Assembly: GCA_019594025.1 (NCBI GenBank)
Contig: JAFDUB010000002.1
Coordinates: 1-45,349 of the forward strand
Length of the DNA: 45,349 bases
Source of the DNA: Thermoplasmata archaeon
Lineage (GTDB): Archaea > Thermoplasmatota > Thermoplasmata > Halarchaeoplasmatales > Halarchaeoplasmataceae
Direction: 5' to 3'
The position numbers and the translations under genes were made by a program. The notes below the pieces were generated by a model, which ran no database searches, had not been told where the DNA came from, and saw nothing but the letters and a program-made list of their open reading frames with translations. Position 1 is the stretch's first letter, and each line of letters begins with the position of its first letter. Of this stretch, positions 1,661 to 42,549 are shown one piece after another.

Positions 1661-1790
1661 GGAAGATGAGGTATTAATTACTTTTTAATTAGAGTCTTAG
1701 CATATCAAAATAGATTTAGGAGTACACGAATTGATTCAAAGGGGCAAAATACTTTATACTGTCGAGAATATTACATTGGCAAATTATAGA

Positions 1791-10233: not shown

Positions 10234-11879
10234 CTAGAACCCTCCTCTTCCATAAATTCCCGAACCATATCCATTACGGATTTTTTGTCCCTATAGTAGG
10301 AAGCCGTTATATGGGCAAAGTCACGATAGTTCATGATGTCCTTTTTATCCATATAATCTAAAACCATCTTACGACGTTTAACTTCCTTCTCCATCTCACG
10401 GGAGGTCCAATTCTTTTCCTGTGCCACACGGCTGTAAACATAGCTGTGTCCGCTGTAATTAAAAGAATCATCAGCGGGATTCCATGTGTAGGCCTTATTG
10501 GTGATCAATTCATCAGTATCCGGATCTACCCCGACTACCTCTGTTATAGCTTTTATTCTCCTTACCATCTTGGTACCGACCTTGACTTTCCCCTGCAAAA
10601 GCACGATGTCCAAAGCACCTACCAATGCCCTAGGTAGATTGATTGGATCGTTTTCCATCCTATTTACCATGGTCTGAACATCGTCGGCGTGGAAAGTGGT
10701 GTAAGCACTTTTTCCTGTAGCCATCGCCTGGAAAACAACGTAGGCCTCGGCCCCTCTAACCTCTCCTACCATGAGATACTGAGGACGCTGACGCAGTGCG
10801 GCCTGAAGTAACTCAAACATGTCGATCTCGCCGGCCTTCTTACCAGTCTCATCGGTCTCACCGAAACCACTACGGGTCAACAACGGTACCCAATTGTCAT
10901 GGGGAAGGTTCAATTCACGTGTATCTTCAATACTCACTATTTTCATCTGAGGAGGTATGAACAACAATATCGCATTGAGCGTCGTCGTTTTACCTGATGC
11001 CGTACCCCCACATATCAACATCGATTGGCCGGTTTCGATGGCAATCCATGCATAGGCCATCATCTCTGGATTGAAGGTTTTAAAATCTATTAGGTTGATT
11101 GGTGTATAGGGCTCCTCCTCGAAACGTCTTATTGTGAAAGAAGAGCCTTTCTGAGTCACATGTGTACCAAGGGTTTCTTGAAGTCTGGAGCCGTCAGGCA
11201 TGGTAGCATCGAGCATCGGATCCGCTACGGATATGTGTTTACCGCTACGCTGGGCTATCCACACAACGAAATTATCCAGTTCTGATGCATCCTCAAAAAT
11301 CACGTTGGATTTCATGGAACCGTACTTACGGTGAAAAACGAATATAGGAATCCCTACGCCGTCGCAGGAGATATCTTCCGGGTCTAAATCGTTCATTATT
11401 ACATCGATTGGGCCGTAGCCGAGGAAATCTCTTTTTATGTAATACTGGATTCTGTTCTCAGAAACAGGTCGGAGTTTGATATCCATATCGTTTAATATAG
11501 TGCGAACCTTTTTTTCTAGATGATCCTCCCGCCCCTTATCACCTTCTATTTTTACCAACTCAAATTCATCGATTATGCGGTTTTTTACAGTTTCTAATAG
11601 TGCCTCTTCGTCCTCATCAAGATCTGGTTCGATGACCTCGTAAATGTACTCGTTGCTTTTATTATCATAGCGTATACGCACGTAGGAATAAGGTTTTTCA
11701 ATAGGTGTTATCTCTATTTCTTTGACACTCTCTTCGACTATCTTTGGGATGGTAGTTATCGAGTCGCTTTTTGAACCTTTCTTTCCACCGGCCGGCATAT
11801 AAACCCTTTTAGGCTTATCGGTAACCCCTATCATCTTGAGTTTCTCTTTTATCTTATCTCCTATAGCAGCCATGTTCAT
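10230..11879 (-). CDS. Type IV filament assembly ATPase (ArlI/FlaI-PilB-TadA superfamily), copy 2
   Basis: 549 aa. Walker A GGTASGKTTTLNA, Asp box/Walker B IVSIEDTRELNL, GEVRGAEA and the His box TTFHADD are present. The FlaI-like N-terminal domain reads YSYVRIRYDNKSNEYIYEVIEP. Confidence 0.9.
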   Translation of the reverse strand: MNMAAIGDKIKEKLKMIGVTDKPKRVYMPAGGKKGSKSDSITTIPKIVEESVKEIEITPIEKPYSYVRIRYDNKSNEYIYEVIEPDLDEDEEALLETVKNRIIDEFELVKIEGDKGREDHLEKKVRTILNDMDIKLRPVSENRIQYYIKRDFLGYGPIDVIMNDLDPEDISCDGVGIPIFVFHRKYGSMKSNVIFEDASELDNFVVWIAQRSGKHISVADPMLDATMPDGSRLQETLGTHVTQKGSSFTIRRFEEEPYTPINLIDFKTFNPEMMAYAWIAIETGQSMLICGGTASGKTTTLNAILLFIPPQMKIVSIEDTRELNLPHDNWVPLLTRSGFGETDETGKKAGEIDMFELLQAALRQRPQYLMVGEVRGAEAYVVFQAMATGKSAYTTFHADDVQTMVNRMENDPINLPRALVGALDIVLLQGKVKVGTKMVRRIKAITEVVGVDPDTDELITNKAYTWNPADDSFNYSGHSYVYSRVAQEKNWTSREMEKEVKRRKMVLDYMDKKDIMNYRDFAHITASYYRDKKSVMDMVREFMEEEGSR

Positions 11880-12803
11880 TCACCTCATGAGGTTTAATCC
11901 TCCAAATAATATCCGAAGGGCGACAAAACCCATCAACGTTAGAATGAAACTGTGCTGCATACCGCTGGCTAGCTTACCTGTCTGTAACACCCCCGCAACA
12001 ATACCGTCACCTATGCCGTGGGCGAACACTGCAAGTACGAATATGAATTCGATGACAGGTATATTCTCTGTTCTTATTTCCGCTGCCCCTGCTCCCCCTA
12101 CGGGTGTATCGACATCATCGGTTTCCATGCCACCTCCGGCCTCTGCCATCTGTGCAAGAAATTGTGTGCTTAGGATGATAATAACGACGATAAAAACTGC
12201 GAAGGAGATGTAGATTACAGCGAGATAAGAAGTCATGGCAATCTTCTGTTCATCTTCAGATAGATGCACTTGTTTGGTATCCTGAGACACCATACTTAAA
12301 ACATCAGCCACGTTACCACCGGCATCGTTTGCTTTGATGATGATAGCTACAACCCTGTTCACAAGTGGTGTGTCGACCCGTTCCGAAAAGAGATTTAGAG
12401 CCTCAGCAGCGGGAACCCCCCAATCGATTTGTGCGGCCATTTTGTTGATCTCTGGTGTTAATTTACCGTATCTGCCCGATGCGGAAACCACTATAGCGTC
12501 TGCTAGTGTCATTCCGAACCTTCCGGCCTCCGCCACATCACGAAGGAAATCGGGCAAGCGCCTTTCGATCCTATCGATCTCCTTCTGTTTTTTATTTATA
12601 TAAAAACCGGTGGGGCCGAGGAAAAGTATCGATCCGATCATGGCCCAATCGATGGGGTCTAGAGGAATAGGTGCGGCATCTATGGCGTTCAGAACCATTA
12701 TAAAAAAAGCAGCGGCTGATATGACCGCGGAAAACATTATTACTTCCTTGGTCCTGCCGAGCTTCAACATTTTTTGTAATTGACTTTCTTCTTCGTATGG
12801 CAT
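11880..12803 (-). CDS. Type IV filament platform protein with a single T2SSF domain (TadC/EpdK-like, equivalent to the C-terminal half of ArlJ/PilC)
   Basis: 307 aa. An N-terminal TM pair is followed by a cytoplasmic T2SSF helical bundle (LPDFLRDVAEAGRFGMTLADAI..LVNRVVAIIIKANDAGGNVADVL) and C-terminal TM helices. The stop is immediately followed by the start of ATPase copy 2 (TGAATG). Confidence 0.8.
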   Translation of the reverse strand: MPYEEESQLQKMLKLGRTKEVIMFSAVISAAAFFIMVLNAIDAAPIPLDPIDWAMIGSILFLGPTGFYINKKQKEIDRIERRLPDFLRDVAEAGRFGMTLADAIVVSASGRYGKLTPEINKMAAQIDWGVPAAEALNLFSERVDTPLVNRVVAIIIKANDAGGNVADVLSMVSQDTKQVHLSEDEQKIAMTSYLAVIYISFAVFIVVIIILSTQFLAQMAEAGGGMETDDVDTPVGGAGAAEIRTENIPVIEFIFVLAVFAHGIGDGIVAGVLQTGKLASGMQHSFILTLMGFVALRILFGGLNLMR

Positions 12804-12810
12804 ATTTTCA

Positions 12811-13836
12811 CTAATCCTGGTTTATCAACCATATAATAAATATGAACCCTGCCTGGGCTCCGGGTATCATTATACCCACTATAGCGTAAAGGAAAGGTAT
12901 CGGATCTCCCGCGCCCATTCCCCCCATCAGGGCCATAATGGCCATTATGACCACAAGGAAAAGGGGAAATGCTACAACGACGGTTACAAAGGATTCCGCC
13001 ATCATACCCAGGGTTTCCATCTTCTGTTGGACTATAAGTTTACGGTTGTCCTGGTACTCCTTTAATTTAGATGTAAAGTATGGTTTCAATTTACCACCAG
13101 AACTTGAGGTGGTAATCACACCTTGTAAGAAGTCCCGGAAAGCTTCGGAAGGAGTTCTATCGGCGGCCCGTTGTAAGGCATTCAATATATCTATTCCCAA
13201 AAGTTCTGTATCCCTAGTTATCCATTCCGCTTCCTCCCTAACCTCTCCATAAAGAGGTTGTTTTGAAAGTTCTTTGAATATTAAATCAACATTTACATCC
13301 GCGGAAGACATGGCCGCGATAAAGCTCATGGCGTCGGGTAACTTTTTATCTATTTTTTTGGCACGTGAACTAGCTTTCATGTTCGGACTAAATTTCAAAC
13401 CGAAATAAGTACCGACCGGGGTAAGAACCGCCACAAGAATTCCCGATCCATAAAGGAATAATCCACCGCCAAGAAAGACGTCAAGGACCGGGCCTATAAA
13501 TATACCTGCGATTACCCCTACTACCATGGCAATGATCGTACTCATCCAAACATAGGATAAATACTCCTCTGACCTAATCTTCATATGGGCCTCCAGAAGG
13601 TCTTGTTCCAATTGTTCATCTTGTAGATTCTTACTCTTTACTATCGGACCCATTATATGCCAACAAAATTGTTTATAAGGAGATAAACGCAGGTACTCAG
13701 GCACCGCTGATTTGGGAAGTCTTACCAAATGAGGACCATAAGTTTCTATTCGATCACTTGGTTTAGCACGTTTTGTGGATATGAACTTATCTTTTTTGAA
13801 TCGTAATTTCTCAAAGGTATCCTCTATCTCAACCAT
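12811..13836 (-). CDS. Type IV filament platform protein with a single T2SSF domain (TadB/EpdJ-like, equivalent to the N-terminal half of ArlJ/PilC)
   Basis: 341 aa. TM helices flank a T2SSF-like bundle (LPDAMSFIAAMSSADVNVDLIFKEL..FRDFLQGVITTSSSGGKLKPYF). The start overlaps the ATPase copy 1 stop (TGATG). Confidence 0.8.
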   Translation of the reverse strand: MVEIEDTFEKLRFKKDKFISTKRAKPSDRIETYGPHLVRLPKSAVPEYLRLSPYKQFCWHIMGPIVKSKNLQDEQLEQDLLEAHMKIRSEEYLSYVWMSTIIAMVVGVIAGIFIGPVLDVFLGGGLFLYGSGILVAVLTPVGTYFGLKFSPNMKASSRAKKIDKKLPDAMSFIAAMSSADVNVDLIFKELSKQPLYGEVREEAEWITRDTELLGIDILNALQRAADRTPSEAFRDFLQGVITTSSSGGKLKPYFTSKLKEYQDNRKLIVQQKMETLGMMAESFVTVVVAFPLFLVVIMAIMALMGGMGAGDPIPFLYAIVGIMIPGAQAGFIFIIWLINQD

Positions 13837-15527
13837 CAGACCTCACCCCTTATAAGAGCTAGAGTCTCCTCTGGTTCTTTGTAATATGATGTCACTATTT
13901 TCGATATCTGTTTATAATCTATGTCCTCCTGTTCCACAAGATGCTCTACGATCTCAACTCTGTTGTTGAACTCGTTGTTCATCTCCTCCTGGGTCATGTT
14001 CTTCATTTCCATAATGATATCCTGATTGTAACTGTGTCCTTTATAAATGAAACTGTCGGATTTTCGGTCCCAATCGAAGACAGTATTTGTGACCAATTCG
14101 TCACTTTCTGGTTCAAACCCAACCAACTCGGTTATCTCCTGTATACGCCTTACCTCCTCGTCCTGTACCCTCGCAAAAGTCTGAATTATCACGAACGAAA
14201 GTGCAGTTAAAAGAACTCGGGGACAGCTGATAGGTGGATTTTCTAATCTGTGAACCATGGATTCAACTGAATCAGCGTGCATGGTACTGTAAGTGGTGTG
14301 ACCGGTTGCCATAGCCTGGAACATGGTATTTGCCTCTTTACCTCGCACCTCACCCACGATGATATAATCGGGCCGCTGTCTTAAAGCGTTTCTCACCAAA
14401 TCGTACATGTTGACCTCTCCAGCCGCCCTACCTCCACTCTTCTTCTCCCCACTACCGGTACGGGTAGTACTCGGTATCCAATTTTCGTGAGGGAGGTTTA
14501 TCTCACGAGTGTCTTCCAAAGAGACTATCTTTAAACCTGGTGGGATGAACAGCGTAGCTGCGTTAAGGGTTGCAGTCTTACCGCAAGCCGTACCCCCGGC
14601 AACAATCATAGACATACCGTTTTCAACCATAAGCCACATATAAGCAATCATCTCAGGAGAAGCTGTATTGTATTGTATCAGTTTTACAGGTGTAAATGGT
14701 TCTTCCTTGAATCGTCGTATAGTTATAGAGGAACCACGGGTGGATATCTCGTTGGCATAGGTGGCTTGTACCCTATGCCCCCCTCTTGTGGTTCCATCGA
14801 GGATTGGGTTAGAAACAGATACTTGTTTTCCACATCTCTGGCCTAGTTGAATTATAAAGGAGTTTAACACCTTTTCATCTTCGAATTTAACATCGGTTCT
14901 GATGGATTCGTATTTCGTGTGATAGATAAAAAGAGGTGTGTCCACACCATCACAGGATATATCCTCAACCATATCGTCACTCATGATTACATCTATAGGT
15001 CCGTATCTAACGTAATCTCTGAGTATGTAATATATCAAACGTTTTTTAGATTTCTCCTCGATATTCAAGCTTCTGCTTCGGATGTAACTCTCGACACACT
15101 CTTCGATATACTCTTCCTTATCTTTACGGGCCATATGTTCCCAATCGTAGGAGAGTGTGCGGTCAAGTGTGTCTTTGATTAGAGAAAGCCATCCTTCTTC
15201 CTTTGGGGTTAAACTCGGTTCGATCGCCTGATATATATACTCCTTTGTATTATCGTCATATATTATCCTAACATAACTGAAGGGGGGATGGATCTTAAAT
15301 ATGTCCTTCACCGTAATATTTTCGCGGTCTGTCTCTGGTAGCCGGGTATATTCGGATATCCATCCTCCAGAACCCGCTTTGACCCTGTCTCTGTTTTTAA
15401 AATCTTCTTTGGATAACGTAACCCTTCTTGGTTTATGAGAAAATCCCAAAGGAGACGTAACCAAATTTGAAAGTTTGGTTAAGATATTGCTCTTCTTTTT
15501 CGAAGTGGTTTTCCCTGTTTGAGCCAT
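13836..15527 (-). CDS. Type IV filament assembly ATPase (ArlI/FlaI-PilB-TadA superfamily), copy 1
   Basis: 563 aa and paralogous to 10230-11879. It carries FSYVRIIYDDNTKEYIYQAIEP, Walker A GGTACGKTATLNA, IVSLEDTREINL, GEVRGKEA and the His box STMHADS. All catalytic motifs are intact. Confidence 0.9.
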   Translation of the reverse strand: MAQTGKTTSKKKSNILTKLSNLVTSPLGFSHKPRRVTLSKEDFKNRDRVKAGSGGWISEYTRLPETDRENITVKDIFKIHPPFSYVRIIYDDNTKEYIYQAIEPSLTPKEEGWLSLIKDTLDRTLSYDWEHMARKDKEEYIEECVESYIRSRSLNIEEKSKKRLIYYILRDYVRYGPIDVIMSDDMVEDISCDGVDTPLFIYHTKYESIRTDVKFEDEKVLNSFIIQLGQRCGKQVSVSNPILDGTTRGGHRVQATYANEISTRGSSITIRRFKEEPFTPVKLIQYNTASPEMIAYMWLMVENGMSMIVAGGTACGKTATLNAATLFIPPGLKIVSLEDTREINLPHENWIPSTTRTGSGEKKSGGRAAGEVNMYDLVRNALRQRPDYIIVGEVRGKEANTMFQAMATGHTTYSTMHADSVESMVHRLENPPISCPRVLLTALSFVIIQTFARVQDEEVRRIQEITELVGFEPESDELVTNTVFDWDRKSDSFIYKGHSYNQDIIMEMKNMTQEEMNNEFNNRVEIVEHLVEQEDIDYKQISKIVTSYYKEPEETLALIRGEV

Positions 15528-18367: not shown

Positions 18368-21256
18368 ATGAAACCAAAAACAACAGGCAAATTGGCTACC
18401 GGTCTGATAGTGCTTTTAATAGTACTTTCAGTCGCGATGGTACTGCAATGGAATGCGCGAGCAGAAGAACGCCATGTAGGGGCTGTAGAGGGAATAGTAC
18501 AGGCCCAAGACGGAAGCCTAATTCCAGAAGGATTCAATATCAATCTTGAAAACCTTAACGAAGAAGAGGTAATATCATCTTATACTCAAAAAGGAGGATA
18601 TTTCCAATTCTCGGATGTGGATGTAGGTCACTATAGATTAACAGTACCTACACAAACACATCATAGGGCCTACCACGGCAGCGAAACGGATATATTCTAT
18701 ATCGGTAAGGATGCCACAGAATTCCAAGAGATTGACGTGGTATCTAGAATTCGTGAGTACACCATCAACGGTACAGTACTAGATGAACAAGATGAGGTTG
18801 TTGAAGATGCTCGGATCCATCTGTTCGATGGTACGAGCTACCACTTCCAAACCGGTATCGAGAATGAAACAACCGGTTACTTTGAGTTTAGAACATACGA
18901 AGGTACATTCAACCTCCGCGTTGAAGGCGAGGATCTCGCACCCTACGTGATGTACGATTTAGTGGTGAATGAAACCACTACCGTCAACAAAACAATGACT
19001 ATAGATGTGGTGTTGAAGCAAACGCCACAGGTCAGCGGCTATTTATGGTCCGAAGAAGGATACGGAATAACCGCGCAGATGGCGGTAACACTTATAGATA
19101 ACGAGCATGGGGATATGTTCAGGACAACTATGCCTGAAGGAAATCCATGGTTCAACATAGGTGCAACGGCGGGGGAATATACTCTTATCGTTTCCGCCGA
19201 CGGTTACAAGCCTTATATCAATGAAAACGTAGAGATTCCAAACAACGATACAAACGTTCCTTTGAGTAGAGTGTTCGTAGAAGATACACCCATAGAAAGC
19301 GTGTCGACTCATATCGAATTCGATTCTTGGAACGCAATGACCGTTACTCGGGAAAGGACTTTAGAGATAAACAGTCGAATGATGGGTTTGGATTACTGGT
19401 ACTTCGGAAACCTAAGGATGCAAATCGACATGGTATTCGGTGATGGGGACGGAGAAGTCACCCCGGCCGAATTAGAGGCTTTCAAAGAGTGGATCGAATA
19501 CCGAGAAGCAAACCATACTACATCTCAGAGAACGCTATGGTTAGAAGATACGGTATACACCCTAGAAGAATACACTTTCGATTCCGATGAACTCGATACT
19601 TTGGTAGGAGACGTTACCGATCTTGATGTGAACACGATCACACTAACAAGTACGATGCATTACACCCCAGAAGAAGAGGTGGGGGTAGAAGATGATGATT
19701 CTATCCTTTTATACCTCGGACTTAAAAACGATATCGTGATAGGAAACTATCGTAATTACACCTACCAAATAACACTTCCAGATGCTTTCGAAAGAGTTAC
19801 AACAGACCAGGAAGAGATACCAGCTAATGTTGAGGTACAGGGATATACGGACATATTCATAGACACTCCCGAAGGATTGGGACGATCATATCTGACTTTA
19901 GATATATACCAGTCCGAAGAAGGAGAGGCTTCTATAGAACTGGTCGAGGACGTGAACGTTTACCTTATGGACGAGAAGTACTATGCAGTACAGATAGATA
20001 CGAACGTAACGTGTGTGGCAGATTTGACCGATCCGGTCGGTAGTCCCGAGGACGCAAATTACACCTGGCTCTTGGATAATACGGAGATAGGCAAGTACGG
20101 CGATGAGATAACACATACCTTTGAACAAGAAGGCGAAGTCAATCTAACGGTTAGAATTCGTCAAGCAGGTGGTTTGGTAGTTTCCGCTTACACCAATATT
20201 CTTGTTGATGGTACAGGGCCTCACGGAGAGATAGAAGTTGCTAACCACACCGTAGATGAAGGTGAAACAATCGAGTTCTCGGCATACAATTTCACGGATG
20301 AAAGTGAGATACGAGAATTTAGCTGGAACTTCAGCGACGGAACGGATCACGTCACCGGTACGAACGTTACTCATTCATTCGAATTATACGGTACCTATGA
20401 AGTATCTGTAAACGCCACGGATGTTGTTGGTAACTGGAACATAGAGACAATAGAAATAGAGGTAATGGATGTTACACCACCGGTGGCAAGGTTCACCGCA
20501 ACGTACGATGACCAAGAGGTAGACAGTGAAAACATTACCACCACCGTGCGATTAGAGAGGCATCAAGAGTTTTCACTCGACGCTAGCCGATCCTACGACC
20601 CTGAAGGATTCGATGGTGAGCAAGGAGACGTGAGCGTAGTCTGGTGGATAACTGGTGTTGAATTTAGAAGCGAGGAGTTCGAGATATTGAACTATTCATT
20701 CTCAGAACTCGGAACCTACGATATACAATTGAACGTCACCGACGAAGCCGGGAATTATGACAACATATCTCGAACCGTTGAGGTGATACCCGGACCTACA
20801 CCGAACATAGAAGTAACAGAGGTCTTCCTATCTGAAGACGAAGTAAAAAGTGGTGATGAGGTGCAGGTGATCGCAAACGTTACCAACTACGGTACCGCAA
20901 ACGCCACCAACGTGAACGTCGTATTCAGAGTAGATGGAGAGGTAGTAGCCATTACACCCAGGTTCTACTACATCGATGGTGAAGAGGCTGATGCTTCAAT
21001 ACCCATGGATGAATACAGACACATCAAGTTTGACTGGGAAGCTGAGGAAGGCGAACGAACTTTAACCGTCAACGTGACCGATGCCGATGAACCTGCGGCT
21101 TGGTTGTACGACAACGAAGTGGAGATAACTGTAGACGTTGAACCACCAGCATGGCGCACTTTGATAGGCTACATACTTGTTCCAGTGATAATAATCGGAG
21201 TAGCAGTAGGACTTTATCTGAATAAAGATAAAGTACAGAATATGCTGCGTAGGTAA
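18368..21256 (+). CDS. Secreted, C-terminally anchored surface protein with carboxypeptidase-regulatory-like, PKD and CARDB domains
   Basis: 962 aa. A strong SD (AAGGAGGA) lies 11-18 nt upstream of the ATG. The signal/anchor is LATGLIVLLIVLSVAMVL. N-terminal beta-sandwich repeats end in GHYRLTV, GTFNLRV and GEYTLIV. PKD modules read YTWLLDNTEIGKYGDEITHTFEQEGEVNLTV and FSWNFSDGTDHVTGTNVTHSFELYGTYEVSVNATDVVGN. The CARDB module is PNIEVTEVFLSEDEVKSGDEVQVIANVTNYGTANATNVNVVF. The C-terminal TM is LIGYILVPVIIIGVAVGLYL. Confidence 0.85.
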   Translation: MKPKTTGKLATGLIVLLIVLSVAMVLQWNARAEERHVGAVEGIVQAQDGSLIPEGFNINLENLNEEEVISSYTQKGGYFQFSDVDVGHYRLTVPTQTHHRAYHGSETDIFYIGKDATEFQEIDVVSRIREYTINGTVLDEQDEVVEDARIHLFDGTSYHFQTGIENETTGYFEFRTYEGTFNLRVEGEDLAPYVMYDLVVNETTTVNKTMTIDVVLKQTPQVSGYLWSEEGYGITAQMAVTLIDNEHGDMFRTTMPEGNPWFNIGATAGEYTLIVSADGYKPYINENVEIPNNDTNVPLSRVFVEDTPIESVSTHIEFDSWNAMTVTRERTLEINSRMMGLDYWYFGNLRMQIDMVFGDGDGEVTPAELEAFKEWIEYREANHTTSQRTLWLEDTVYTLEEYTFDSDELDTLVGDVTDLDVNTITLTSTMHYTPEEEVGVEDDDSILLYLGLKNDIVIGNYRNYTYQITLPDAFERVTTDQEEIPANVEVQGYTDIFIDTPEGLGRSYLTLDIYQSEEGEASIELVEDVNVYLMDEKYYAVQIDTNVTCVADLTDPVGSPEDANYTWLLDNTEIGKYGDEITHTFEQEGEVNLTVRIRQAGGLVVSAYTNILVDGTGPHGEIEVANHTVDEGETIEFSAYNFTDESEIREFSWNFSDGTDHVTGTNVTHSFELYGTYEVSVNATDVVGNWNIETIEIEVMDVTPPVARFTATYDDQEVDSENITTTVRLERHQEFSLDASRSYDPEGFDGEQGDVSVVWWITGVEFRSEEFEILNYSFSELGTYDIQLNVTDEAGNYDNISRTVEVIPGPTPNIEVTEVFLSEDEVKSGDEVQVIANVTNYGTANATNVNVVFRVDGEVVAITPRFYYIDGEEADASIPMDEYRHIKFDWEAEEGERTLTVNVTDADEPAAWLYDNEVEITVDVEPPAWRTLIGYILVPVIIIGVAVGLYLNKDKVQNMLRR

Positions 21257-33333: not shown

Positions 33334-34161
33334 ATGAAAGTTCTCCACGTGTGCTCAAAAAAGGCGGTTCCCATGCTGAATATAATCAAGTTATATCAGC
33401 GGGAATTAAAAAAACACGGTATACGATGCGATGCAAACACCACTGGGGAGGTAAAGGGAAATTACGACGTAATCCATGGACATTACTCCTTAACAAAACC
33501 CGTTATAAAGGCCTGTCTACGGGCCCGAACACAAGGCATACCGTTCATCATTCACCATCATGGAAGTGATGTAAGGAGGATTACGGAGCACGGGCCTAAG
33601 AGGTTGCCTCCACATCACAACCTTATCGGAGCTATGATAAGGAGAGGTGCGGACGTGACTTTATTGAGCACCCCGGACCTACATGAATGGGTAGAAGGTC
33701 TATACCTGGCAAATCCAGTGGATCTACAGAGGTTCCGTCCTATGGAGAGAGAGAAGAACGGTCGTGTACTTATCTTTGGAAGTTTTGTGTCGAAAAAGGC
33801 ACTATTACCTCTTTTGAAAGATGATGAAGAGTACGATATGCTTAACTGGGGAGTTGATATGGATATGCCAAATAACGTTAGAAAAATACCCTTCCGTCCA
33901 AACAAAAAATTACCAGAACTTTTCAACAGGTACGAAAAGATGATAGGCCCGCTAGTCGACCCTGTTTCCCTAGGAAGATTAGAAGCCATGGCATGCGGAT
34001 TAGATACGTACACCAACTTCCCTAAAAAGTACGAAGTATATTATGGATTCGAAAATCCGGACCACGCTAAAGAACCACGAAAGTTCGTAGAAAAGTACCA
34101 CTCTCCGTCAAAGATAATAGACGTACTGCTCTCTATATACCATGATATCAGCCGGAGATGA
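33334..34161 (+). CDS. Short GT-B fold (GT4-like) glycosyltransferase, putative
   Basis: 275 aa. GT4-like landmarks are MKVLHV, DVIHGHY, HHHGSDV, ANPVDLQRFRP and GRLEAMACG. It is shorter than canonical GT4 enzymes, so the assignment is tentative. Confidence 0.55.
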   Translation: MKVLHVCSKKAVPMLNIIKLYQRELKKHGIRCDANTTGEVKGNYDVIHGHYSLTKPVIKACLRARTQGIPFIIHHHGSDVRRITEHGPKRLPPHHNLIGAMIRRGADVTLLSTPDLHEWVEGLYLANPVDLQRFRPMEREKNGRVLIFGSFVSKKALLPLLKDDEEYDMLNWGVDMDMPNNVRKIPFRPNKKLPELFNRYEKMIGPLVDPVSLGRLEAMACGLDTYTNFPKKYEVYYGFENPDHAKEPRKFVEKYHSPSKIIDVLLSIYHDISRR

Positions 34162-35317: not shown

Positions 35318-36088
35318 TCACCATGGCCTTCTTCTTTTCTTCCTTCTTTTCAGATAATAGAGAACGAAGAGTACACCGGCTATCACCATGATTATTGGCA
35401 GTGCATATTGCCATGGACCTGGTTCTCCTTCAACGTAAAATGTCTTGCTTAGTAAGAGCTCACCTTTGTTGAAATCCTCACCAGGCCTGAATCCATAGTC
35501 AGCCCAGATTTCAATAGTATGCTCTCCTTCTTCGAGTTTTTCCTTACCCCACATAAACTCGATCATCCGTGTCTCATTGGCCTCCAATCTATCGACGGTT
35601 TGTGTGACAAACAATTCGTCACCGATGAACAAGCCGACTATAACTTTATCGAGATCATACTCTTTAGGATTGGTCAGGTCTACTCGGGTTATGATGGGTT
35701 TATAAGCGTCGATATCCAAAGTAGATTCTCTATACCGGATCTCCAAACCATCGGAACAGTACCCTACTACCCTAAATGAATAACTACCCTTTTCCACAGC
35801 TGTTACGTTAATCTGAAATATGCTGCTCGTGGTAGACTCATCGGATAAAGGTTCAATGTGAAGACCGTCTGGTACATCCTCAACGTTTATGCTCCAATTA
35901 AGGGCCTCTTCTGCAAAACTACCACGTACCTCTACAAAAAAGTGTTCTGTGTGATTGACGAACACTTCGCTGGGACCGTCGACGTATATACTCACTCCGG
36001 TCTGAGAAAATCTGTCTGCCCTTACAGGTACTGCTAAAGATGCCAGTAGAAGGACCGAAATTGTAAAGATGATTATTCTACGTTTCAT
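35318..36088 (-). CDS. Secreted, C-terminally anchored Ig-like (CARDB-like) protein, translationally coupled to aglB
   Basis: 256 aa. The signal peptide is MKRRIIIFTISVLLLASLAVPVRA. Two beta-sandwich-like halves follow, with sequons NHT, NWS, NVT and NET. The TM helix ALPIIMVIAGVLFVLYYL is followed by RRKKRRRPW. The start overlaps the aglB stop (ATGA). Confidence 0.7.
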   Translation of the reverse strand: MKRRIIIFTISVLLLASLAVPVRADRFSQTGVSIYVDGPSEVFVNHTEHFFVEVRGSFAEEALNWSINVEDVPDGLHIEPLSDESTTSSIFQINVTAVEKGSYSFRVVGYCSDGLEIRYRESTLDIDAYKPIITRVDLTNPKEYDLDKVIVGLFIGDELFVTQTVDRLEANETRMIEFMWGKEKLEEGEHTIEIWADYGFRPGEDFNKGELLLSKTFYVEGEPGPWQYALPIIMVIAGVLFVLYYLKRRKKRRRPW

Positions 36089-39000
36089 CTATACCACCAT
36101 CCCTTCTTTCTGGTATAATACAAAGCAGCAACTACTGCTAAAATGACTAAAAGAACCCAGTGACCTGTTCCCATCTCAAAGGTGTCTTCTTCAATAAGTA
36201 TACCTTCACCTTCAATCGCAAAGGAATCCTCATCGAGGTAAAGGTGGGGAAGCTCAATGTCGTAGTATGCGGTATCTTCAGTGGAAGGATCACTCATCGA
36301 GGTAGCCTTGATTTGAACAGCGATATCTGAAGAGGGTTGTTGTGAATCGGGTGTAAGTACCAATTCGACCTCGGCTGTAGAGTCCTCAGTAACTTCGCCT
36401 GTCTGACTATCAATTGAAACATCCCATCCCTGGGTTTCCAACTGGGCTTGATTCTGTATAAGTAAATCGAAGGTATCCTTTCCATTACCCGTATTCTCTA
36501 CCAGCAGAGTATATATTATCTGGCCGTCCCTGAGTGTTCTTCGAGATACATCTGGAAGCAGGCGTACTCCATAGTGTTGGGCTACGTTGAAATTTAGCTC
36601 CTTGCTTTCAGACTCCTCTGAATTAAGGGATTCGACCATAAAGTTCATGGGAGGTGGGTTGACTATGGCGTCTTCGGGGACATAAAGTGTTACCTTCACC
36701 GTTCTAGATTCTTTGGGTTCTAATTCTATTGTAGAGGGTTCAAATTCCATATCCCAGATCGCATCTGGAGCCTTGGATAATTGGAATACGTCATCAGTGT
36801 TCCCAGTGTTTGTTAAGGTGATGTAGTAGTCGAGAACGTCATCGGGTTCAGTATCTTTAACCGGTATGGTACCTATCTCGATCCCGTATTCTTTGACTTT
36901 ACTTAGTTCTAAGTTTTTCACGATATTGTAACGTAAGTCTATTTCCTGCTCATCCTTATACCTGATATCTCCGAGTTCTTCATCGGTATAGGTTGTCTCC
37001 GCACTTAACCGATAACGGCCTTCGGGTAGTATCAAAGTATAACTACCGTCCTCTTCCGAGCTATCCTCTAACTCCATGGCCTTCTCTAACTCTACGATGC
37101 TTATTTCCGAAGATGTAGCCACACCGTTCCTACTCACGGTGCCGGTTAGTTTAAAGGCCGAGTCAAGCGTTATGTTCAATACCTCGTCTGTTTCACCCAT
37201 GGCGAAGGACTTGAAAACAGCATACATGCCTACTCTTCCCTCGTACTTTACGTAAATCGAATACATACCTTGCGAAATAGGTAAAGAGAAGCTGCCATCA
37301 CTGGTAGTTTCAACCGAGGTAGAGACGGCCTCAGGGGTTTGCCCGAGAAAGGTAATAGTCGTATCGGGAACTGTCTGATCGTTAAGCCGAAGATTTCCGC
37401 TCAAAGTGGGGTAGATCATTTCTCTTTCTAGGGAAATATGTGGCGAAGTTGATACCGTGAGATCATAAAGGTCGGAATAAAGATATCTAACCTTTCGTAG
37501 AATTCCATCAACGGGCTCCGTTGTCTGATAATCCACCTCCACCTCGTACTCACCTGAAGCGAGGTTTACGGAGAAAGTTCCGTCCTCATCGGTTACCCTG
37601 GTAACCGAATAACCGCTGAGTAAGTTCTCAAAGGTCATTTGTATGTTTTCTCGGGGCTCGCCTTCATAGGTCACTAGAGGTGAAAATGTAACTGCGGGTT
37701 CAAGAGTAATATTGTATTCTGTTGGACTATCAAGGGTAAGCTTATCGGTAACTACCAACTCACCGTCTCTATCTGCGCACCACATGGAATAGGTTCCGAC
37801 GGGGAGGTATAGTTCGTAGGTGCCGTTTTCCACTATCAGTTCCTTATCCCAGGGACCCCTTAATGAAAGAATTGCCGACAGTTCGTTTCCATCTTCATCT
37901 AATACAGTTCCATACAGTCTAACCGTGTGATTGACTGTGAAAGGTAATTCTAACGATTCCTCCATGGGTTCGATGTTTATTCTCTCATCAAGATGATAGC
38001 TGATTCCTTCCTCTGGAGAATGATCCACTATGGCATTATATTCGCCCGGCTGTAGTTCAATTTCGTACTCTCCGTTTTCAACTACAGTTTCGGCATCCAC
38101 TGCACCTTCTCCAACTGCCTCGAATCGAATGGAAACCTCGTGTAGTGCTTCACTATCAATCTCCAGACTACCGTATACGTTTACGTTCTTTGCTTCCACG
38201 GCAAAGTATGGTCCAAATTCATCTTCCGGGTCGTAGTAAACCTCTTTTTCATAAAAGCCTTCTTTGGTGAAACGTGCTACGACTTCCTCGTTTGGAAGAA
38301 CCGCTGTGAATCGTCCATATCGCGAGGAGAGCAGTGAAATTGAGTGGCCGTTGGTCATTATCTCTATTTTTGCGGAGATGCCTTCGCCTTCATCATATTC
38401 TTCATCAAAGTTTAAGTCGCGATATATACGGCCTTCGACAGAATGGCCGTAAACTGCATCGAACCGTAAAGTTTTATCGGAATCGAGAGTGAAAGAATCC
38501 CTATAATACAAATCCGCTTGTGGAGTGCTCTTCCATCCGTAGACCGTGTAAGAATCTCTTGGTAGGGAAGCACTGATGTAGCCTTCTCGGTTACTCTGTG
38601 TTTCAAAAATCGTACCGTCGGAATTAAGAATCTCTACTTGGAGCTTATCTATAGGGATTAAATTCAGAACCACTAGGGCTTCGACCTGGTGTCCTTCGCC
38701 GAACTCTGCAACATAGTCTGTGTCTTCGGGAACTGATACCGTACCAAGGTGCACCAGTTTTTCATTATCTTTCCGATAAATACCGTATACGGTATAATCA
38801 CCTGTGGGTAATTTGACGGTGAATTCTCCTTGAGCATCAGTCACCACGTTGTGAGAATATTCTCTTCCGAGGGTACCGGTAAAGGATAAACGCTGGTTGC
38901 TCAGTTTTGTACCTACGTCACTTTCAGCTACACCCTCTACAACATGAGCACGTGAGATATTCACGGTAAATTCTTCCTGAGCATCGGGTTCTAAACCCAA

Positions 39001-42000
39001 TACTTTGGGGCCTGTGGATACGGTATACTCGTCCTGTTCAACCCCGATCATATAATCTCCGGATAAGATATGTTGGAAGGTGTAATTCCCACCAGGCTCA
39101 ACAAGTTCAACATATCTTTCTCCAGTTTCAATGTTATCTAGATACAGCTCTACACCTTCAATTCCAGGATCGTCCATTATAGCTTCCCCGCTCAGTGAAG
39201 CAACCTGAATCTTTAAACCTTCAGTAACATGTTCACCGGACTCCAGCGTTACATCAACTGGAGAAGTACCGGGAGTATCGGAAGAAATGGTATATTTACC
39301 TGGTATAAGGTCGGTAAAGGTATAGCTGCCATCGGTTTCCACCTCCATTTCACCTCCGATACCATCTAGTTTTATGGTAGATTCAACGAGGGTGTCGTTT
39401 CCAGGGATATACTCGCCACTATCGTCTTTATCGATGAAAACTTGGGCGGTCAATTCGCTGGTATCAACCTCAAAATCCTTTCTGATCAAATAATCCCATC
39501 GTCCGTCTCCGTTTCGATCCGTCCTTTTCCTCATGGCCTGTTCATCAGTCACTTCAAATTGTTCCATCCCCAGATATATAGATTCCGTTTTTGTTACTGC
39601 TTCCTCGTCTCCACCTGTGGAAACCACCAAGGATAGTTCTCCTGCCGGGGCCTTTATCTCGTACATGCCGTCTTCATCGGTATAAGTTACCTGATGAGGA
39701 GTCCCCATTTCATCCAATATGGTAACACGTGCATCGGGTACTGGATGACCGTTAGAAGTATCCACTCTTCCTGAAACCAGTGCGCCGTGGAAGTATTCTA
39801 TGAAAACCACTCCCTGACGCATGTAGCTTCGGGCACTCATATCAACGGTACCGTTTTCTTCTTGTTGATATCTTATCGCATCCTGAAGGGAAACAGCTTT
39901 CCAAGCCTCTGGGTGGTCACCCACTTCTTCCCGTGGATAAGGATTCCAATATGCGGTTCTAGTTGCCAATCTAAAGTTCTCCATTCCCCAGGCGGGCATG
40001 GGTTGTACCTCTTCGATGTCTACTCCAGGAATCCCCTGTCCTTCACCGGCGTCTTCTCCGGAAAGTCCTGCAAAAGTACGGTAAAGAACCGTGTTATAGA
40101 ATGCGGGTTTAAAGTTCATCTTGAAATCAACTATCTGTACTCCAGGTGGAATCTCATCAGGATCCTCGTATTCGTTACCCTGCATATCAACATATACAAT
40201 ATTGTAAAAATCGATTGGAGTTCTATCGACTATCCTGTGTCCAGAGAGCTTTGCGGGAGCGTAAAATATTCCTGTCTGTCGAGCATCGAATGGGAACAAA
40301 CGGGTATCCACCGCGATATACTTAATAAGTTTATCCAGCTCTTCAGTGAGTTCATGATACACATCAACCAGGACATCTAAATCCTCATAGGATAGTAATC
40401 CCATAAGCCTGGCGTACCTCACATTCCCCGGATGTATATCATCAGCTCGATGATGGTATCTATCGGGATCGGAAAGTACTTCGTCCCTATAATCTTCGGG
40501 GTTCAAAAATGCGTCCTCGACTAAGTCGGTTTTTTCCTCACCGATATTGCGAACCAATATCTCTCTAACGTCCCCGGATATCCCACCGTCTTCTTTCACA
40601 GGCAGTTCAAGCACTCGTACGATGAGCAACGACATCAACTCGGATTCGTTCTGGGCCATCAATACGTTACCTGCAAGTCTGTGCCCTGATAGGAAGTTAT
40701 CGGCTACAGTTGGATTATGGGCCCTTTGGGCCGATTCGAAACCGTAGTCCCACCAGCTCAGGACCCCGGGACGTTTCTCTGGAGGTAAGTGTGAATTTTC
40801 TTCCTTAAGCCACTCCCAAGCAGCGGGCCAGTAATCAGTCGGTTTATCGATTCCAAAGCCAAAGGCACCAAGATGCCAGTTATGTGCTTGTGCATCGTCA
40901 TAATCCTCTGGACGAAGTAACTCAGGAAGAGCTTGATTTATCTGCTGATCATAATGGTTTTTTTCTTCGAAGGGTATACCGGCATCAAACCCATATAAAA
41001 CGTTGGGCATGACTATTAAAAATACTATGAAGAGGGCCGTGAGTACGTGACCAACTTTGATCCCCCTTTTCAGACCAATGAAAAAGCCTCCTCGGAAGCC
41101 CTTTAGCCTACGGTATATAGTATGGAATTGTGCTTTATCCGCCGCTAATGCAACCAGCCAACCGGCCATCAATGCGAAGGCCGGTGCTCCGTTGAAGATA
41201 AATCTCGCCGCGGAGGTCGCCATGTATATGGCGAAGGCTGTCCATGTTAATATGAAAAGAAAGTTCGTGGTCCATTTTTCTCGAATATGCCATACGCCTA
41301 GACCGACAGCGACAATAGACAGGAAAAATGACACAGGGCCGAAAGAAAAGACTAGATTACTGAATTCGGGGGCCTGCGCCTCGGCAATGGTCTCGATAGT
41401 CTTGGTACGGGTGAAGTAACCGGCTCCGCTTGTCAGAGCATTTATGAAACCGGGTGCGAAATAATATGCAAATACCACTACACCGGCAACTATCGCAAAT
41501 AGTGCTGAGAGTACAAGCACCCATGGGTAATCCCTCGTTACCGTAAGAGCTACACCACCTATCAATGCAACAGTGGTAAGTATCAACGGTACATCGAACC
41601 ATGTACCGACTGCATGGGGCAACATAGTGCCGACGCCTGAGACCAGATAGAAGGGAGCGGCTATGGCTAAACCCAAAACAAGTGTTACCCCTACACATGC
41701 GGTGACACCTAATGAATCTCGGTATCTGAATTTATCTAAGAACAACTGTATGTAATAGTATGCAAGAATTATAACGAATACGTATGCGTAACCCTGCCAG
41801 CTTAAAGCGACTGACCCGACGCACATACCGGCCATGGCGGAGTATAACAACGCCTTTTTATTCTCATGGACGAAAGTAGACAAACCCTCTTTAATATCCG
41901 CACGTTGCGTCCAATCCTTAACCCATTTCCTCTTCTCCGGTATGTACTTTAGGGCTTTCATGAGGAAATAAAAACCGGTTATAGCGAAGAATAGATAGAT

Positions 42001-42549
42001 CGCATCGTGGTCGGCATTACCTATGGGACTTCGCTGAAGATGTCCCGCACTGATTGCTAGTAGGAAAGCCGCGGCTACACCCGCTTTTTTACCGAAAATG
42101 TCTCTACCTACAAGATAAACCGGGAATATGGTAAGAGCACCCCAGAAACCGGTGGATAAAATCAAGGTGTAATGTAATGATCTGGTAAGGTCTCCGACTA
42201 AGGGAGCCAATATATGGCCAGTTAAAGCGACCGACCAACCGTATAGAGGGGGACGTGGATTGACCCTTCCAATAGGATAATTAAGTAGATTATCGTGAAG
42301 TAGATGACGGTTATTAAAAGCAATATATTCTACAATTCTTTCGTAATAATAAGCATCGGAACCACCTGTTAGTAAGAAAGGAGTTCCAAATTTGGTCGAT
42401 AATTCAAACGCAAAGTATGTTCGGATGAAGAAAGCGAGTACGAATATGGCTCCAAGACATATAGCGATACCCCATTTATCCTCTAATATCGATTGGCCTT
42501 GGGTGGTGTCGTCCCGCTTCTTCAATATGTTAGGCATACGTAACCTCAT
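36085..42549 (-). CDS. aglB: Archaeal oligosaccharyltransferase AglB (STT3) fused to a very long repeat-rich ectodomain and a C-terminal TM anchor
   Basis: 2,154-aa uninterrupted ORF. The polytopic N-terminus carries GGSDAYYYER, IGNADHDAIY and the WWDYG motif (VLSWWDYGFE, ~40741-40758). From ~39785 there are at least 11 carboxypeptidase-regulatory-like repeats. Two NEW3/CARDB-like modules follow, then the TM helix HWVLLVILAVVAALYY and RKKGWWYR. Confidence 0.9.
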   Translation of the reverse strand: MRLRMPNILKKRDDTTQGQSILEDKWGIAICLGAIFVLAFFIRTYFAFELSTKFGTPFLLTGGSDAYYYERIVEYIAFNNRHLLHDNLLNYPIGRVNPRPPLYGWSVALTGHILAPLVGDLTRSLHYTLILSTGFWGALTIFPVYLVGRDIFGKKAGVAAAFLLAISAGHLQRSPIGNADHDAIYLFFAITGFYFLMKALKYIPEKRKWVKDWTQRADIKEGLSTFVHENKKALLYSAMAGMCVGSVALSWQGYAYVFVIILAYYYIQLFLDKFRYRDSLGVTACVGVTLVLGLAIAAPFYLVSGVGTMLPHAVGTWFDVPLILTTVALIGGVALTVTRDYPWVLVLSALFAIVAGVVVFAYYFAPGFINALTSGAGYFTRTKTIETIAEAQAPEFSNLVFSFGPVSFFLSIVAVGLGVWHIREKWTTNFLFILTWTAFAIYMATSAARFIFNGAPAFALMAGWLVALAADKAQFHTIYRRLKGFRGGFFIGLKRGIKVGHVLTALFIVFLIVMPNVLYGFDAGIPFEEKNHYDQQINQALPELLRPEDYDDAQAHNWHLGAFGFGIDKPTDYWPAAWEWLKEENSHLPPEKRPGVLSWWDYGFESAQRAHNPTVADNFLSGHRLAGNVLMAQNESELMSLLIVRVLELPVKEDGGISGDVREILVRNIGEEKTDLVEDAFLNPEDYRDEVLSDPDRYHHRADDIHPGNVRYARLMGLLSYEDLDVLVDVYHELTEELDKLIKYIAVDTRLFPFDARQTGIFYAPAKLSGHRIVDRTPIDFYNIVYVDMQGNEYEDPDEIPPGVQIVDFKMNFKPAFYNTVLYRTFAGLSGEDAGEGQGIPGVDIEEVQPMPAWGMENFRLATRTAYWNPYPREEVGDHPEAWKAVSLQDAIRYQQEENGTVDMSARSYMRQGVVFIEYFHGALVSGRVDTSNGHPVPDARVTILDEMGTPHQVTYTDEDGMYEIKAPAGELSLVVSTGGDEEAVTKTESIYLGMEQFEVTDEQAMRKRTDRNGDGRWDYLIRKDFEVDTSELTAQVFIDKDDSGEYIPGNDTLVESTIKLDGIGGEMEVETDGSYTFTDLIPGKYTISSDTPGTSPVDVTLESGEHVTEGLKIQVASLSGEAIMDDPGIEGVELYLDNIETGERYVELVEPGGNYTFQHILSGDYMIGVEQDEYTVSTGPKVLGLEPDAQEEFTVNISRAHVVEGVAESDVGTKLSNQRLSFTGTLGREYSHNVVTDAQGEFTVKLPTGDYTVYGIYRKDNEKLVHLGTVSVPEDTDYVAEFGEGHQVEALVVLNLIPIDKLQVEILNSDGTIFETQSNREGYISASLPRDSYTVYGWKSTPQADLYYRDSFTLDSDKTLRFDAVYGHSVEGRIYRDLNFDEEYDEGEGISAKIEIMTNGHSISLLSSRYGRFTAVLPNEEVVARFTKEGFYEKEVYYDPEDEFGPYFAVEAKNVNVYGSLEIDSEALHEVSIRFEAVGEGAVDAETVVENGEYEIELQPGEYNAIVDHSPEEGISYHLDERINIEPMEESLELPFTVNHTVRLYGTVLDEDGNELSAILSLRGPWDKELIVENGTYELYLPVGTYSMWCADRDGELVVTDKLTLDSPTEYNITLEPAVTFSPLVTYEGEPRENIQMTFENLLSGYSVTRVTDEDGTFSVNLASGEYEVEVDYQTTEPVDGILRKVRYLYSDLYDLTVSTSPHISLEREMIYPTLSGNLRLNDQTVPDTTITFLGQTPEAVSTSVETTSDGSFSLPISQGMYSIYVKYEGRVGMYAVFKSFAMGETDEVLNITLDSAFKLTGTVSRNGVATSSEISIVELEKAMELEDSSEEDGSYTLILPEGRYRLSAETTYTDEELGDIRYKDEQEIDLRYNIVKNLELSKVKEYGIEIGTIPVKDTEPDDVLDYYITLTNTGNTDDVFQLSKAPDAIWDMEFEPSTIELEPKESRTVKVTLYVPEDAIVNPPPMNFMVESLNSEESESKELNFNVAQHYGVRLLPDVSRRTLRDGQIIYTLLVENTGNGKDTFDLLIQNQAQLETQGWDVSIDSQTGEVTEDSTAEVELVLTPDSQQPSSDIAVQIKATSMSDPSTEDTAYYDIELPHLYLDEDSFAIEGEGILIEEDTFEMGTGHWVLLVILAVVAALYYTRKKGWWYR

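Follow-up and report, generated by a model that had tools for sequence, protein, structure and literature searches.

The characterised forms of AglB, the oligosaccharyltransferase (OST) that glycosylates the surface proteins of archaea, are single-subunit enzymes of ~590–1,050 amino acids (aa) with a soluble C-terminal domain; the long form of A. fulgidus, AfAglB-L, has 868–875 aa. To our knowledge, a single subunit is the textbook composition of archaeal and bacterial OSTs, and large non-catalytic membrane-anchored subunits around STT3 are known only in eukaryotes. Here, we analysed a stretch of 45,349 nucleotides (nt), referred to as the window, which covers positions 1 to 45,349 of the forward strand of contig JAFDUB010000002.1 (GenBank assembly GCA_019594025.1) of an uncultured haloalkaliphilic Thermoplasmata archaeon assigned to the family Halarchaeoplasmataceae. 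One of its genes encodes an AglB whose catalytic module continues, in the same open reading frame (ORF), into a long chain of beta-sandwich domains with a second membrane anchor, and it is coupled to a downstream gene for a small membrane protein, hereafter the partner. We somewhat favour the view that this product is a giant, lineage-specific form of AglB equipped with a scaffold ectodomain and a partner. The 2024 review of archaeal N-glycosylation (PMC11407970) mentions neither a giant or fused AglB nor a partner subunit, and we found no literature description of either, prior notice being not fully excludable without the 2020 phylogenetic survey of AglB.

The AglB gene (36085–42549, minus strand) and the partner gene comprise the following features (TM, transmembrane; Ig, immunoglobulin):

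40975–42549, minus strand: polytopic AglB/STT3 membrane domain, residues 1 to ~525, defined by Pfam STT3, the alignment with 3WAJ and hydropathy peaks at 28–520, and carrying D65, D180-H181-D182 and T387-I-A-E390.
39778–40974, minus strand: extracellular C-terminal globular domain of AglB, residues ~526–924, matching 3VU0/3VGP, with invariant WWDYG and D748.
36934–39777, minus strand: eleven tandem transthyretin-like (CarboxypepD_reg/SdrD-B-like) domains, residues 925–1872, defined by Pfam, AlphaFold2 with DSSP, a profile match and conservation.
36256–36912, minus strand: a pair of CARDB-like Ig modules, each with an NTGN(x)D motif, defined by Pfam, NCBIfam and AlphaFold2.
36088–36174, minus strand: C-terminal stop-transfer TM helix (~2128–2148) and basic cytoplasmic tail RKKGWWYR, defined by hydropathy and an AlphaFold2 helix at model residues 1174–1194.
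35318–36088, minus strand: partner gene, whose 256-aa product is a type-I membrane protein; a signal peptide precedes two Ig-like beta-sandwich domains and a TM helix, and the K/R-rich tail closes with RRRPW.

The AglB ORF begins with ATG, preceded 9–13 nt upstream by a Shine-Dalgarno-like GGTGA, and runs through 2,154 codons with zero internal stops to the stop codon at 36085–36087; gene callers elsewhere began at Met5, giving 2,150 aa (P0001). Pfam STT3 (PF02516) matches residues 64–480 with 49.7 bits against a cut-off of 24.5, and in a phmmer search of the PDB residues 59–622 were aligned to residues 41–573 of A. fulgidus AglB-L (3WAJ) with E = 1.6e-9, while the family profile A1 matched the same structure with E = 9e-20. 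The family profile also matches the AglB C-terminal domain structures 3VU0 and 3VGP. The catalytic motifs are in register in the alignment with 3WAJ: the aspartate of external loop 1 in GGSDAYYY (D65) pairs with that of GGNDPWYY (D47), the DxD/DxH motif in NADHD (D180-H181-D182) with NDHH (D161/H163), the TIxE motif of external loop 5 in TIAEA (T387-I-A-E390) with TIAEV, and SWWDYG with SWWDYG, WWDYG being residues 599–603 (nt 40741–40755). Across 117 homologs, D65, H181, D182, E390, WWDYG and D748 are invariant, and position 180 is D in 105 sequences and N in the other 12. The invariant D748 is located C-terminal to WWDYG within AVD(T/S)RLFPF and is a candidate for the Asp of the DK/MI motif. 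Judged from these sequences, the catalytic AglB is under strong purifying selection.

The NCBIfam model TIGR04154, which describes archaeosortase A-associated archaeal STT3, aligned with residues 30–968 and scored 228.9 bits, below its cut-off of 450. On this evidence, the gene encodes a bona fide AglB/STT3 (GT-C, CAZy family GT66), placed outside TIGR04154, which is probably a functional N-oligosaccharyltransferase.

The catalytically intact 13-TM-type GT-C module and its external globular domain lead directly, with no linker between, into a series of 13 beta-sandwich domains, of which 11 are transthyretin-like and two CARDB-like; the series starts at residue 925 (nt 39777). Segmentation of an AlphaFold2 model with DSSP, combined with Pfam, gave the following domain map (residues of the window protein, encoded on the minus strand):

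D1, 925–1003: transthyretin-like.
D2, 1031–1114: SdrD-B-like, with DxDxxG-type loops.
D3, 1117–1194: transthyretin-like.
D4, 1196–1274: transthyretin-like.
D5, 1277–1364: transthyretin-like.
D6, 1369–1451: SdrD-B-like, with DxDxxG-type loops.
D7, 1456–1526: transthyretin-like.
D8, 1540–1606: transthyretin-like.
D9, 1620–1697: transthyretin-like.
D10, 1704–1784: transthyretin-like.
D11, 1796–1872: transthyretin-like.
D12, 1880–1989: CARDB-like, NTGN motif.
D13, 1995–2098: CARDB-like, NTGN motif; matches NCBIfam 'choice-of-anchor T'.
Stalk, 2102–2119: short beta stalk.

Pfam CarboxypepD_reg accumulates 143 bits over the ectodomain, with weaker matches to SdrD_B, SpaA and NOMO_5th, and family profile positions 1032–1114 match the SdrD B domain of 10ps_A. 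The NTGN modules (~1880–2098) match Pfam FixG_C and Ig_VWA7, and N1914, G1916, N1917, N2019, G2021 and N2022 (numbering +4) are invariant in the family alignment. The model choice_anch_T (NF041740) scored 75.6 bits on residues 1986–2092 against a cut-off of 70, covering only model positions 137–247 of 259; as far as this match goes, the membership of the second CARDB-like module in the choice-of-anchor T group is at the domain level only. The AlphaFold2 model of residues 955–2154, built from an alignment of 22 sequences, is all-beta with a mean predicted local distance difference test score (pLDDT) of 82.9, and contains 12 beta-sandwich domains beyond D1 and the terminal helix at 2128–2148. 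The invariant residues of the ectodomain are fold determinants (G, Y, P, N and W). Neither Pfam nor the model revealed an enzymatic, lectin or ligand-binding head domain, all domains being beta-sandwiches of the stalk type. A hidden Markov model (HMM) built from D1 barely detects the remaining repeats, which points to old and mutually divergent repeats.

The chain ends in LYYTRKKGWWYR. A C-terminal TM helix with a K/R tail (consensus RKKRW(I/L)) was present in all homologs sampled (20 of the 117, every sixth), and these C-termini have no conserved archaeosortase-type sorting signal (PGF-CTERM/PGF/PEF-like) before the helix.

The junction between the two parts is among the best-conserved segments of the protein, with the consensus GTVD.S..S....GVVFL.YYDGAIV.GTV.T..G.P..G.RVTV.DE.G.PH....TD at residues 900–960; it has no linker and no variable region, and insertions in the 117 homologs do not exceed 5 aa. 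Since the TIGR04154 alignment reaches as far as residue 968 (position 789 of the 831 in the model), D1 (925–1003) probably belongs to the ancestral long AglB. The lineage-specific addition would therefore amount to ~1,150 aa, beginning at about residue 1004 with a conserved element, EQAMR...DxxGDGxWDY, at 1003–1020 (in the family, EQAMR...D.DGDG..DY). In sequence, this element and the VF.D.D..G loop at 1038–1048, which together span ~nt 39405–39543, resemble the DxDxDG-type loops by which SdrD-B/CnaB-type domains bind calcium; at least 95% of the 117 sequences retain D1009, D1018 and D1040.

An earlier note on this DNA, made from the sequence alone, had read the gene as a single uninterrupted ORF at 36085–42549 with a complete STT3/AglB in its N-terminal part, at least 11 beta-sandwich repeats, two CARDB-like modules, a C-terminal TM helix with a basic tail, and an ATGA overlap with the next gene. 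All of this stands: the ORF is intact at 2,154 aa, Pfam STT3 and the 3WAJ alignment bear out the catalytic module, Pfam and AlphaFold2 give 11 transthyretin-like and two CARDB-like domains, hydropathy and the model agree on the helix at 2128–2148, the overlap is real, and the coordinates that it gave for WWDYG and the onset of the repeats were confirmed. The added ectodomain had been put at ~1,230 aa; beta-sandwiches do begin at residue 925, but, with D1 probably ancestral, the addition is closer to the shorter estimate given above.

A homolog search with the full-length protein as a query yielded more than 120 clusters at the 90% identity level, with a coverage of 97–100%, identities of 30–72% and lengths nearly all between 2,117 and 2,262 aa. 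The MAFFT alignment of 117 of these homologs is colinear across all 2,150 positions, and the gap fraction does not exceed 0.11 in any 50-residue block; mean column conservation is 0.5–0.7 in the AglB part and 0.33–0.48 in the ectodomain. Three scans of GTDB species representatives, which rely on exact peptide patterns, returned 567, 425 and 323 stretches with relatives; among the best 80 loci evaluated in each, the giant AglB is full-length wherever the contig permits. More than 100 species-level genomes encode the same colinear protein of ~2,150 aa. Relatives with identities of 72%, 69% and 65% come from soda-lake Thermoplasmata, the last being 'Ca. Halarchaeoplasma halalkaliphilum', and further carriers are Ca. 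Natronoplasma, Saliniplasma and Haladaptatiplasma. The protein is also encoded by many members of the Methanomassiliicoccales, among them RumEn M1 and genomes with closed chromosomes, by Methanomethylophilaceae metagenome-assembled genomes (MAGs), by UBA10834 and by about a dozen DHVE2/Aciduliprofundum MAGs. The habitats of the carriers include soda lakes, the rumen, digesters, peat and hydrothermal sites. Identical sequences recur in independent NCBI, JGI, ENA and Logan assemblies, and the gene is present on the closed chromosomes CP058896.1, OY968769.1, CP070748.1 and CP070736.1.

An exhaustive phmmer search of the ectodomain against 1.84 billion protein representatives found 96 proteins at E <= 1e-30, and the full-length ones carry the match at residues ~950–2160. 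Seven proteins of ~1,250 aa (P0145, P0153, P0168, P0170, P0173, P0183 and P0156) were considered as candidate free-standing ectodomains and rejected as fragments, because each begins within the C-domain of AglB or within domain 1 and has no signal peptide. No split-gene or free-standing version was found among the 1.84 billion representatives and in the three genome scans. The continuity of AglB with a long ectodomain and a second anchor, which the earlier note had proposed, is thus conserved in more than 120 clusters; the search for orthologous fusions and the comparison with independent assemblies, by which it had suggested looking for a frameshift or for separately encoded parts, turned up neither. 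Our confidence in the fusion architecture and its conservation is high, and the giant AglB is, as its sequences indicate, a conserved, lineage-specific form of the enzyme. An observation of its own is that the MAG MFD01299.bin.2.50 (Methanomassiliicoccaceae) encodes two full-length giant AglB paralogs, L104 (CAVYIY010000008.1) and L106 (CAVYIY010000006.1).

The ectodomain of the window protein has only 7 sequons in its 1,200 aa; the family median is 17 (range 5–39), and many family members are probably glycosylated themselves. Sequon enrichment was considered as a mark of a self-glycosylated coat and rejected, since 7 sequons here and a median of 17 in the family are a modest and not a defining excess. 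Two sequons are widely kept in the family: NHT at residue 878 of the AglB C-domain (75%; DHP in the window protein) and NxTLSG at residue 1713, at the start of D10 (82%; YPT in the window protein).

The ATG of the partner gene overlaps the AglB stop codon as ATGA, so that the two genes are translationally coupled. In a survey of the 104 distinct loci where the giant ORF is complete and 750 bp or more of 3' sequence is available, a same-strand ORF of 180–330 aa starting between −25 and +120 nt from the AglB stop was found in 103; 92 of its products have an N-terminal hydrophobic segment and 96 have a C-terminal TM helix. The sole locus without a partner is L106, the second giant paralog of its MAG. 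The partner is the only broadly conserved neighbour of the giant AglB, and it is obligatory. The earlier note had noticed it as a coupled, anchored Ig-like gene but underrated it. The AlphaFold2 model of the partner has a pLDDT of 85, and hhalign pairs its first domain with D13, the CARDB-like domain that closes the ectodomain, with 86% probability (E = 5e-6), suggesting a distant relationship between these two domains. The possibility that the partner is a duplicate of the AglB C-terminus was rejected, since BLASTP gave no significant match and the hhalign match concerns one domain only. In the 11 partners of the halophilic clade, the K/R run that follows the TM helix leads into an invariant RRPW, the last four residues of the protein; family-wide, 21 of the 103 partners end in RRPW.

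From the topology of AglB (in 3WAJ, the N-terminus is inside and the C-terminal domain outside) and the positive-inside rule, we infer that the cytoplasmic membrane holds the ~1,200-aa ectodomain at both of its ends. Anchored in this way, the ectodomain would close into a loop or arch on the outside of the membrane, next to the active site, and at ~3.5–4 nm per domain this loop might rise an estimated ~20–25 nm above it. The terminal TM helices of AglB and the partner could pack near the AglB membrane domain. The loop and the partner would serve a two-component OST as scaffold subunits without a catalytic role, much as the eukaryotic OST and translocon have lumenal beta-sandwich subunits with a single TM helix (ribophorins, OST48 and NOMO), and the arch would organise or space the enzyme inside the glycoprotein coat. 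We propose such a two-component holoenzyme, by analogy, as a tentative reading that we doubt slightly more than we credit, and our confidence in the scaffold mechanism is modest. A bolder form, in which Thermoplasmata own a true multi-component OST independent of the eukaryotic one, with AglB, a NOMO-like 13-domain arch and the bitopic partner forming a cage over the site of translocation and glycosylation without which these archaea, largely devoid of walls, could not build their glycoprotein envelope, would go further and seems rather unlikely. As for the envelopes concerned, the one cultured relative with an envelope description that we found, Methanomethylophilus alvi Mx-05, has no cell wall and no S-layer, and two membranes have been reported for M. 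luminyensis (PMC10673518).

Several results weigh against the scaffold mechanism. The predicted template modelling score (pTM) of the ectodomain model is 0.39, that is, no defined inter-domain arrangement is predicted. In Foldseek searches of the PDB, the ectodomain and the partner matched only generic multi-Ig proteins (alpha-2-macroglobulins, hydin and transglutaminase barrels) with TM-scores of ~0.1–0.3, and OST accessory subunits were not among the matches of either. Finally, the cultured isolates M. luminyensis, M. alvi and A. boonei are absent from the top-80 lists of the three pattern-dependent genome scans.

The ectodomain could instead be an envelope ruler or mechanical spacer, a NOMO-like rod that sets or bears the distance from the cytoplasmic membrane to an outer layer, be it a glycocalyx or the second membrane of M. 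luminyensis, with the OST as a mere anchor. NOMO is a subunit of the BOS complex of the multipass translocon and binds nicalin and TMEM147. The best PDB match of the ectodomain profile is NOMO2 (9c7v_B; E = 1.3e-32, 115.7 bits), while the next non-NOMO match has E = 0.004, and Pfam NOMO_5th scores 46.6 bits on the ectodomain against a cut-off of 27, with NOMO1-like_2nd matching faintly. The gross plan is similar as well, in that about 12 transthyretin-like domains are followed by a C-terminal TM helix with a short tail. NOMO, in which 12 prealbumin-like domains precede a C-terminal TM helix, has been proposed to space ER (endoplasmic reticulum) sheets (PMC11186639), and the strictly conserved length of the giant AglB would suit such a role. 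However, the match is not colinear: HMMER aligned five stretches of NOMO2, mainly by placing the profile segment ~107–305 onto four different NOMO regions, which indicates a shared domain type and not a shared architecture. Colinear orthology to NOMO was rejected, the matches being repeat-to-repeat only, and the sequences indicate no common descent beyond the domain family. Moreover, NOMO is absent from the Foldseek top 50 for the ectodomain, and no nicalin- or TMEM147-like genes were found in the window or the neighbouring loci. The stop-transfer helix and basic tail are held in the cytoplasmic membrane, so the chain alone cannot bridge to an outer layer, and we regard a ruler as unlikely.

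Another explanation is that the product is a polyprotein, cut into an AglB of ~1,000 aa and a C-terminally anchored S-layer-like protein, the fusion serving co-insertion and stoichiometry. A beta-sandwich ectodomain followed by a TM helix and a basic tail is indeed the architecture of archaeal C-terminally anchored surface proteins; NF033506, 'putative S-layer protein', matches weakly, and the number of sequons in the ectodomains, reaching 39, resembles that of surface glycoproteins. Against cleavage stand the highly conserved junction without a linker or a variable region, where no conserved protease-type motif was recognised, the fact that the two parts are never separate genes in any lineage among hundreds of genomes, and an enzyme-level expression signal that would be odd for an abundant coat protein. 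These points make processing into two proteins improbable.

The earlier note had called the ectodomain "adhesin-like", and repeats that bind hosts, particles or cells, with AglB as their anchor, would accord with the common use of SdrD-B-like, SpaA-like and CarboxypepD_reg domains in the stalks of bacterial adhesins. The number and order of the domains are nevertheless fixed at identities down to 30%, across the soda-lake, rumen, digester, peat and hydrothermal lineages, which argues against an adhesin, as do the age and divergence of the repeats, the lack of a distal head domain and the anchoring of both ends in the membrane, which leaves no free tip. The term is not upheld, and a role in adhesion appears very improbable. 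An artefact, that is, a missed stop, a frameshift or a chimeric assembly joining AglB to a surface-protein gene, was a legitimate suspicion for a metagenome-type contig, but nothing spoke for it; it was rejected and has a negligible probability, since four data sources supply colinear full-length orthologs from over 100 independent assemblies, closed chromosomes included.

The surroundings of the giant AglB vary, apart from the partner. Among the 80 loci compared, wecB is syntenic in 7, the GT4-like gene of the window in 6 (the six closest) and the tryptophanyl-tRNA synthetase (TrpRS) gene in 18, while in the closed Methanomassiliicoccales genome CP058896.1 the AglB–partner pair lies amid genes for RNA polymerase, L7Ae, NusA, PyrF and PurD. 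The genomic context of the giant AglB is housekeeping. Since wecB and the glycosyltransferase gene are kept only in close relatives, the "glycosylation and surface island" proposed earlier is not supported beyond those relatives. The GT4-like gene itself (33334–34161, plus strand) is a weak call: its matches, to N-terminal GT4 half-domains only (23.9, 22.5 and 21.4 bits), are under the Pfam cut-offs, and NCBIfam has no match for it.

CarboxypepD_reg and CARDB domains are common building blocks of the surface proteins of the source organism, as two other large ORFs of the window use them. One, at 18368–21256 (plus strand), encodes a 962-aa surface-type protein with CarboxypepD_reg, PKD and CARDB domains. 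The other, at 1731–7700 (plus strand), encodes 1,989 aa with five CARDB domains, DUF11 and C-terminal double zinc-ribbon domains (DZR, Zn_ribbon_3), so that extracellular Ig-like modules are unusually joined to a zinc-ribbon tail whose location is presumably cytoplasmic. The window further contains, at 9397–15527 (minus strand), a type IV pilus/archaellum-like cluster with a pair of PilB/T2SSE ATPases of 549 and 563 aa as well as a DUF7289 protein and two T2SSF-like membrane proteins, followed on its 3' side by split MgtE-like and PhoU/TrkA-C genes. The PADLOC defence-system models gave no match.

A giant AglB with a second anchor and a partner is thus encoded across the archaeal class Thermoplasmata, including the gut and rumen methanogens of the order Methanomassiliicoccales. 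NCBI records list the orthologs as 'carboxypeptidase regulatory-like domain-containing protein', 'glycosyltransferase family 39 protein' (GT39) or 'hypothetical protein', and with such generic or misleading names, surveys of archaeal N-glycosylation that go by name will miss or mis-size them. If the ectodomain and the partner are functional subunits, OSTs would have been elaborated independently here, in a case that is accessible to experiments and could help to explain how the glycoprotein coat is organised in wall-less Thermoplasmata. Should the less likely cage over the glycosylation site prove real, it would provide a prokaryotic model for why OSTs gain large non-catalytic lumenal scaffolds.

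Compared with known systems, the ectodomain shares with MSCRAMM-type stalks (SdrD B, SpaA/CnaB) two domains that match SdrD B and have DxDxxG-type loops, whereas the giant AglB has no A-type ligand-binding region, sortase signal or variation in repeat number and is anchored at both ends. The eukaryotic OST subunits ribophorin I/Ost1, OST48/Wbp1 and ribophorin II/Swp1 are bitopic, with beta-rich lumenal parts, a C-terminal TM helix and a short tail, and are arranged around STT3, a plan like that of the partner and the C-terminal module of AglB; with no match in sequence or fold, the analogy is architectural only. The likeness to NOMO consists of about 12 prealbumin/transthyretin-like domains with a G-x-Y...P-G-x-Y signature, one C-terminal TM helix with a short tail, and a position on the non-cytoplasmic face adjoining the secretion and glycosylation machinery. 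NOMO, however, is free-standing with its own signal peptide, while the ectodomain of the giant AglB is always fused to the OST catalytic subunit and its last two domains are CARDB-like. Long-type archaeal AglB (AglB-L of A. fulgidus, 3WAJ/5GMY, and P. furiosus, Hfx. volcanii AglB, and TIGR04154) has the same GT-C/STT3 domain, catalytic motifs and external globular domain and probably also the D1 beta-sandwich that follows it. The giant AglB, ~2.5 times the size of AfAglB-L, exceeds this form by ~1,150 aa that comprise 12 beta-sandwich domains, is anchored in the membrane a second time and has an operon partner that is obligatory.

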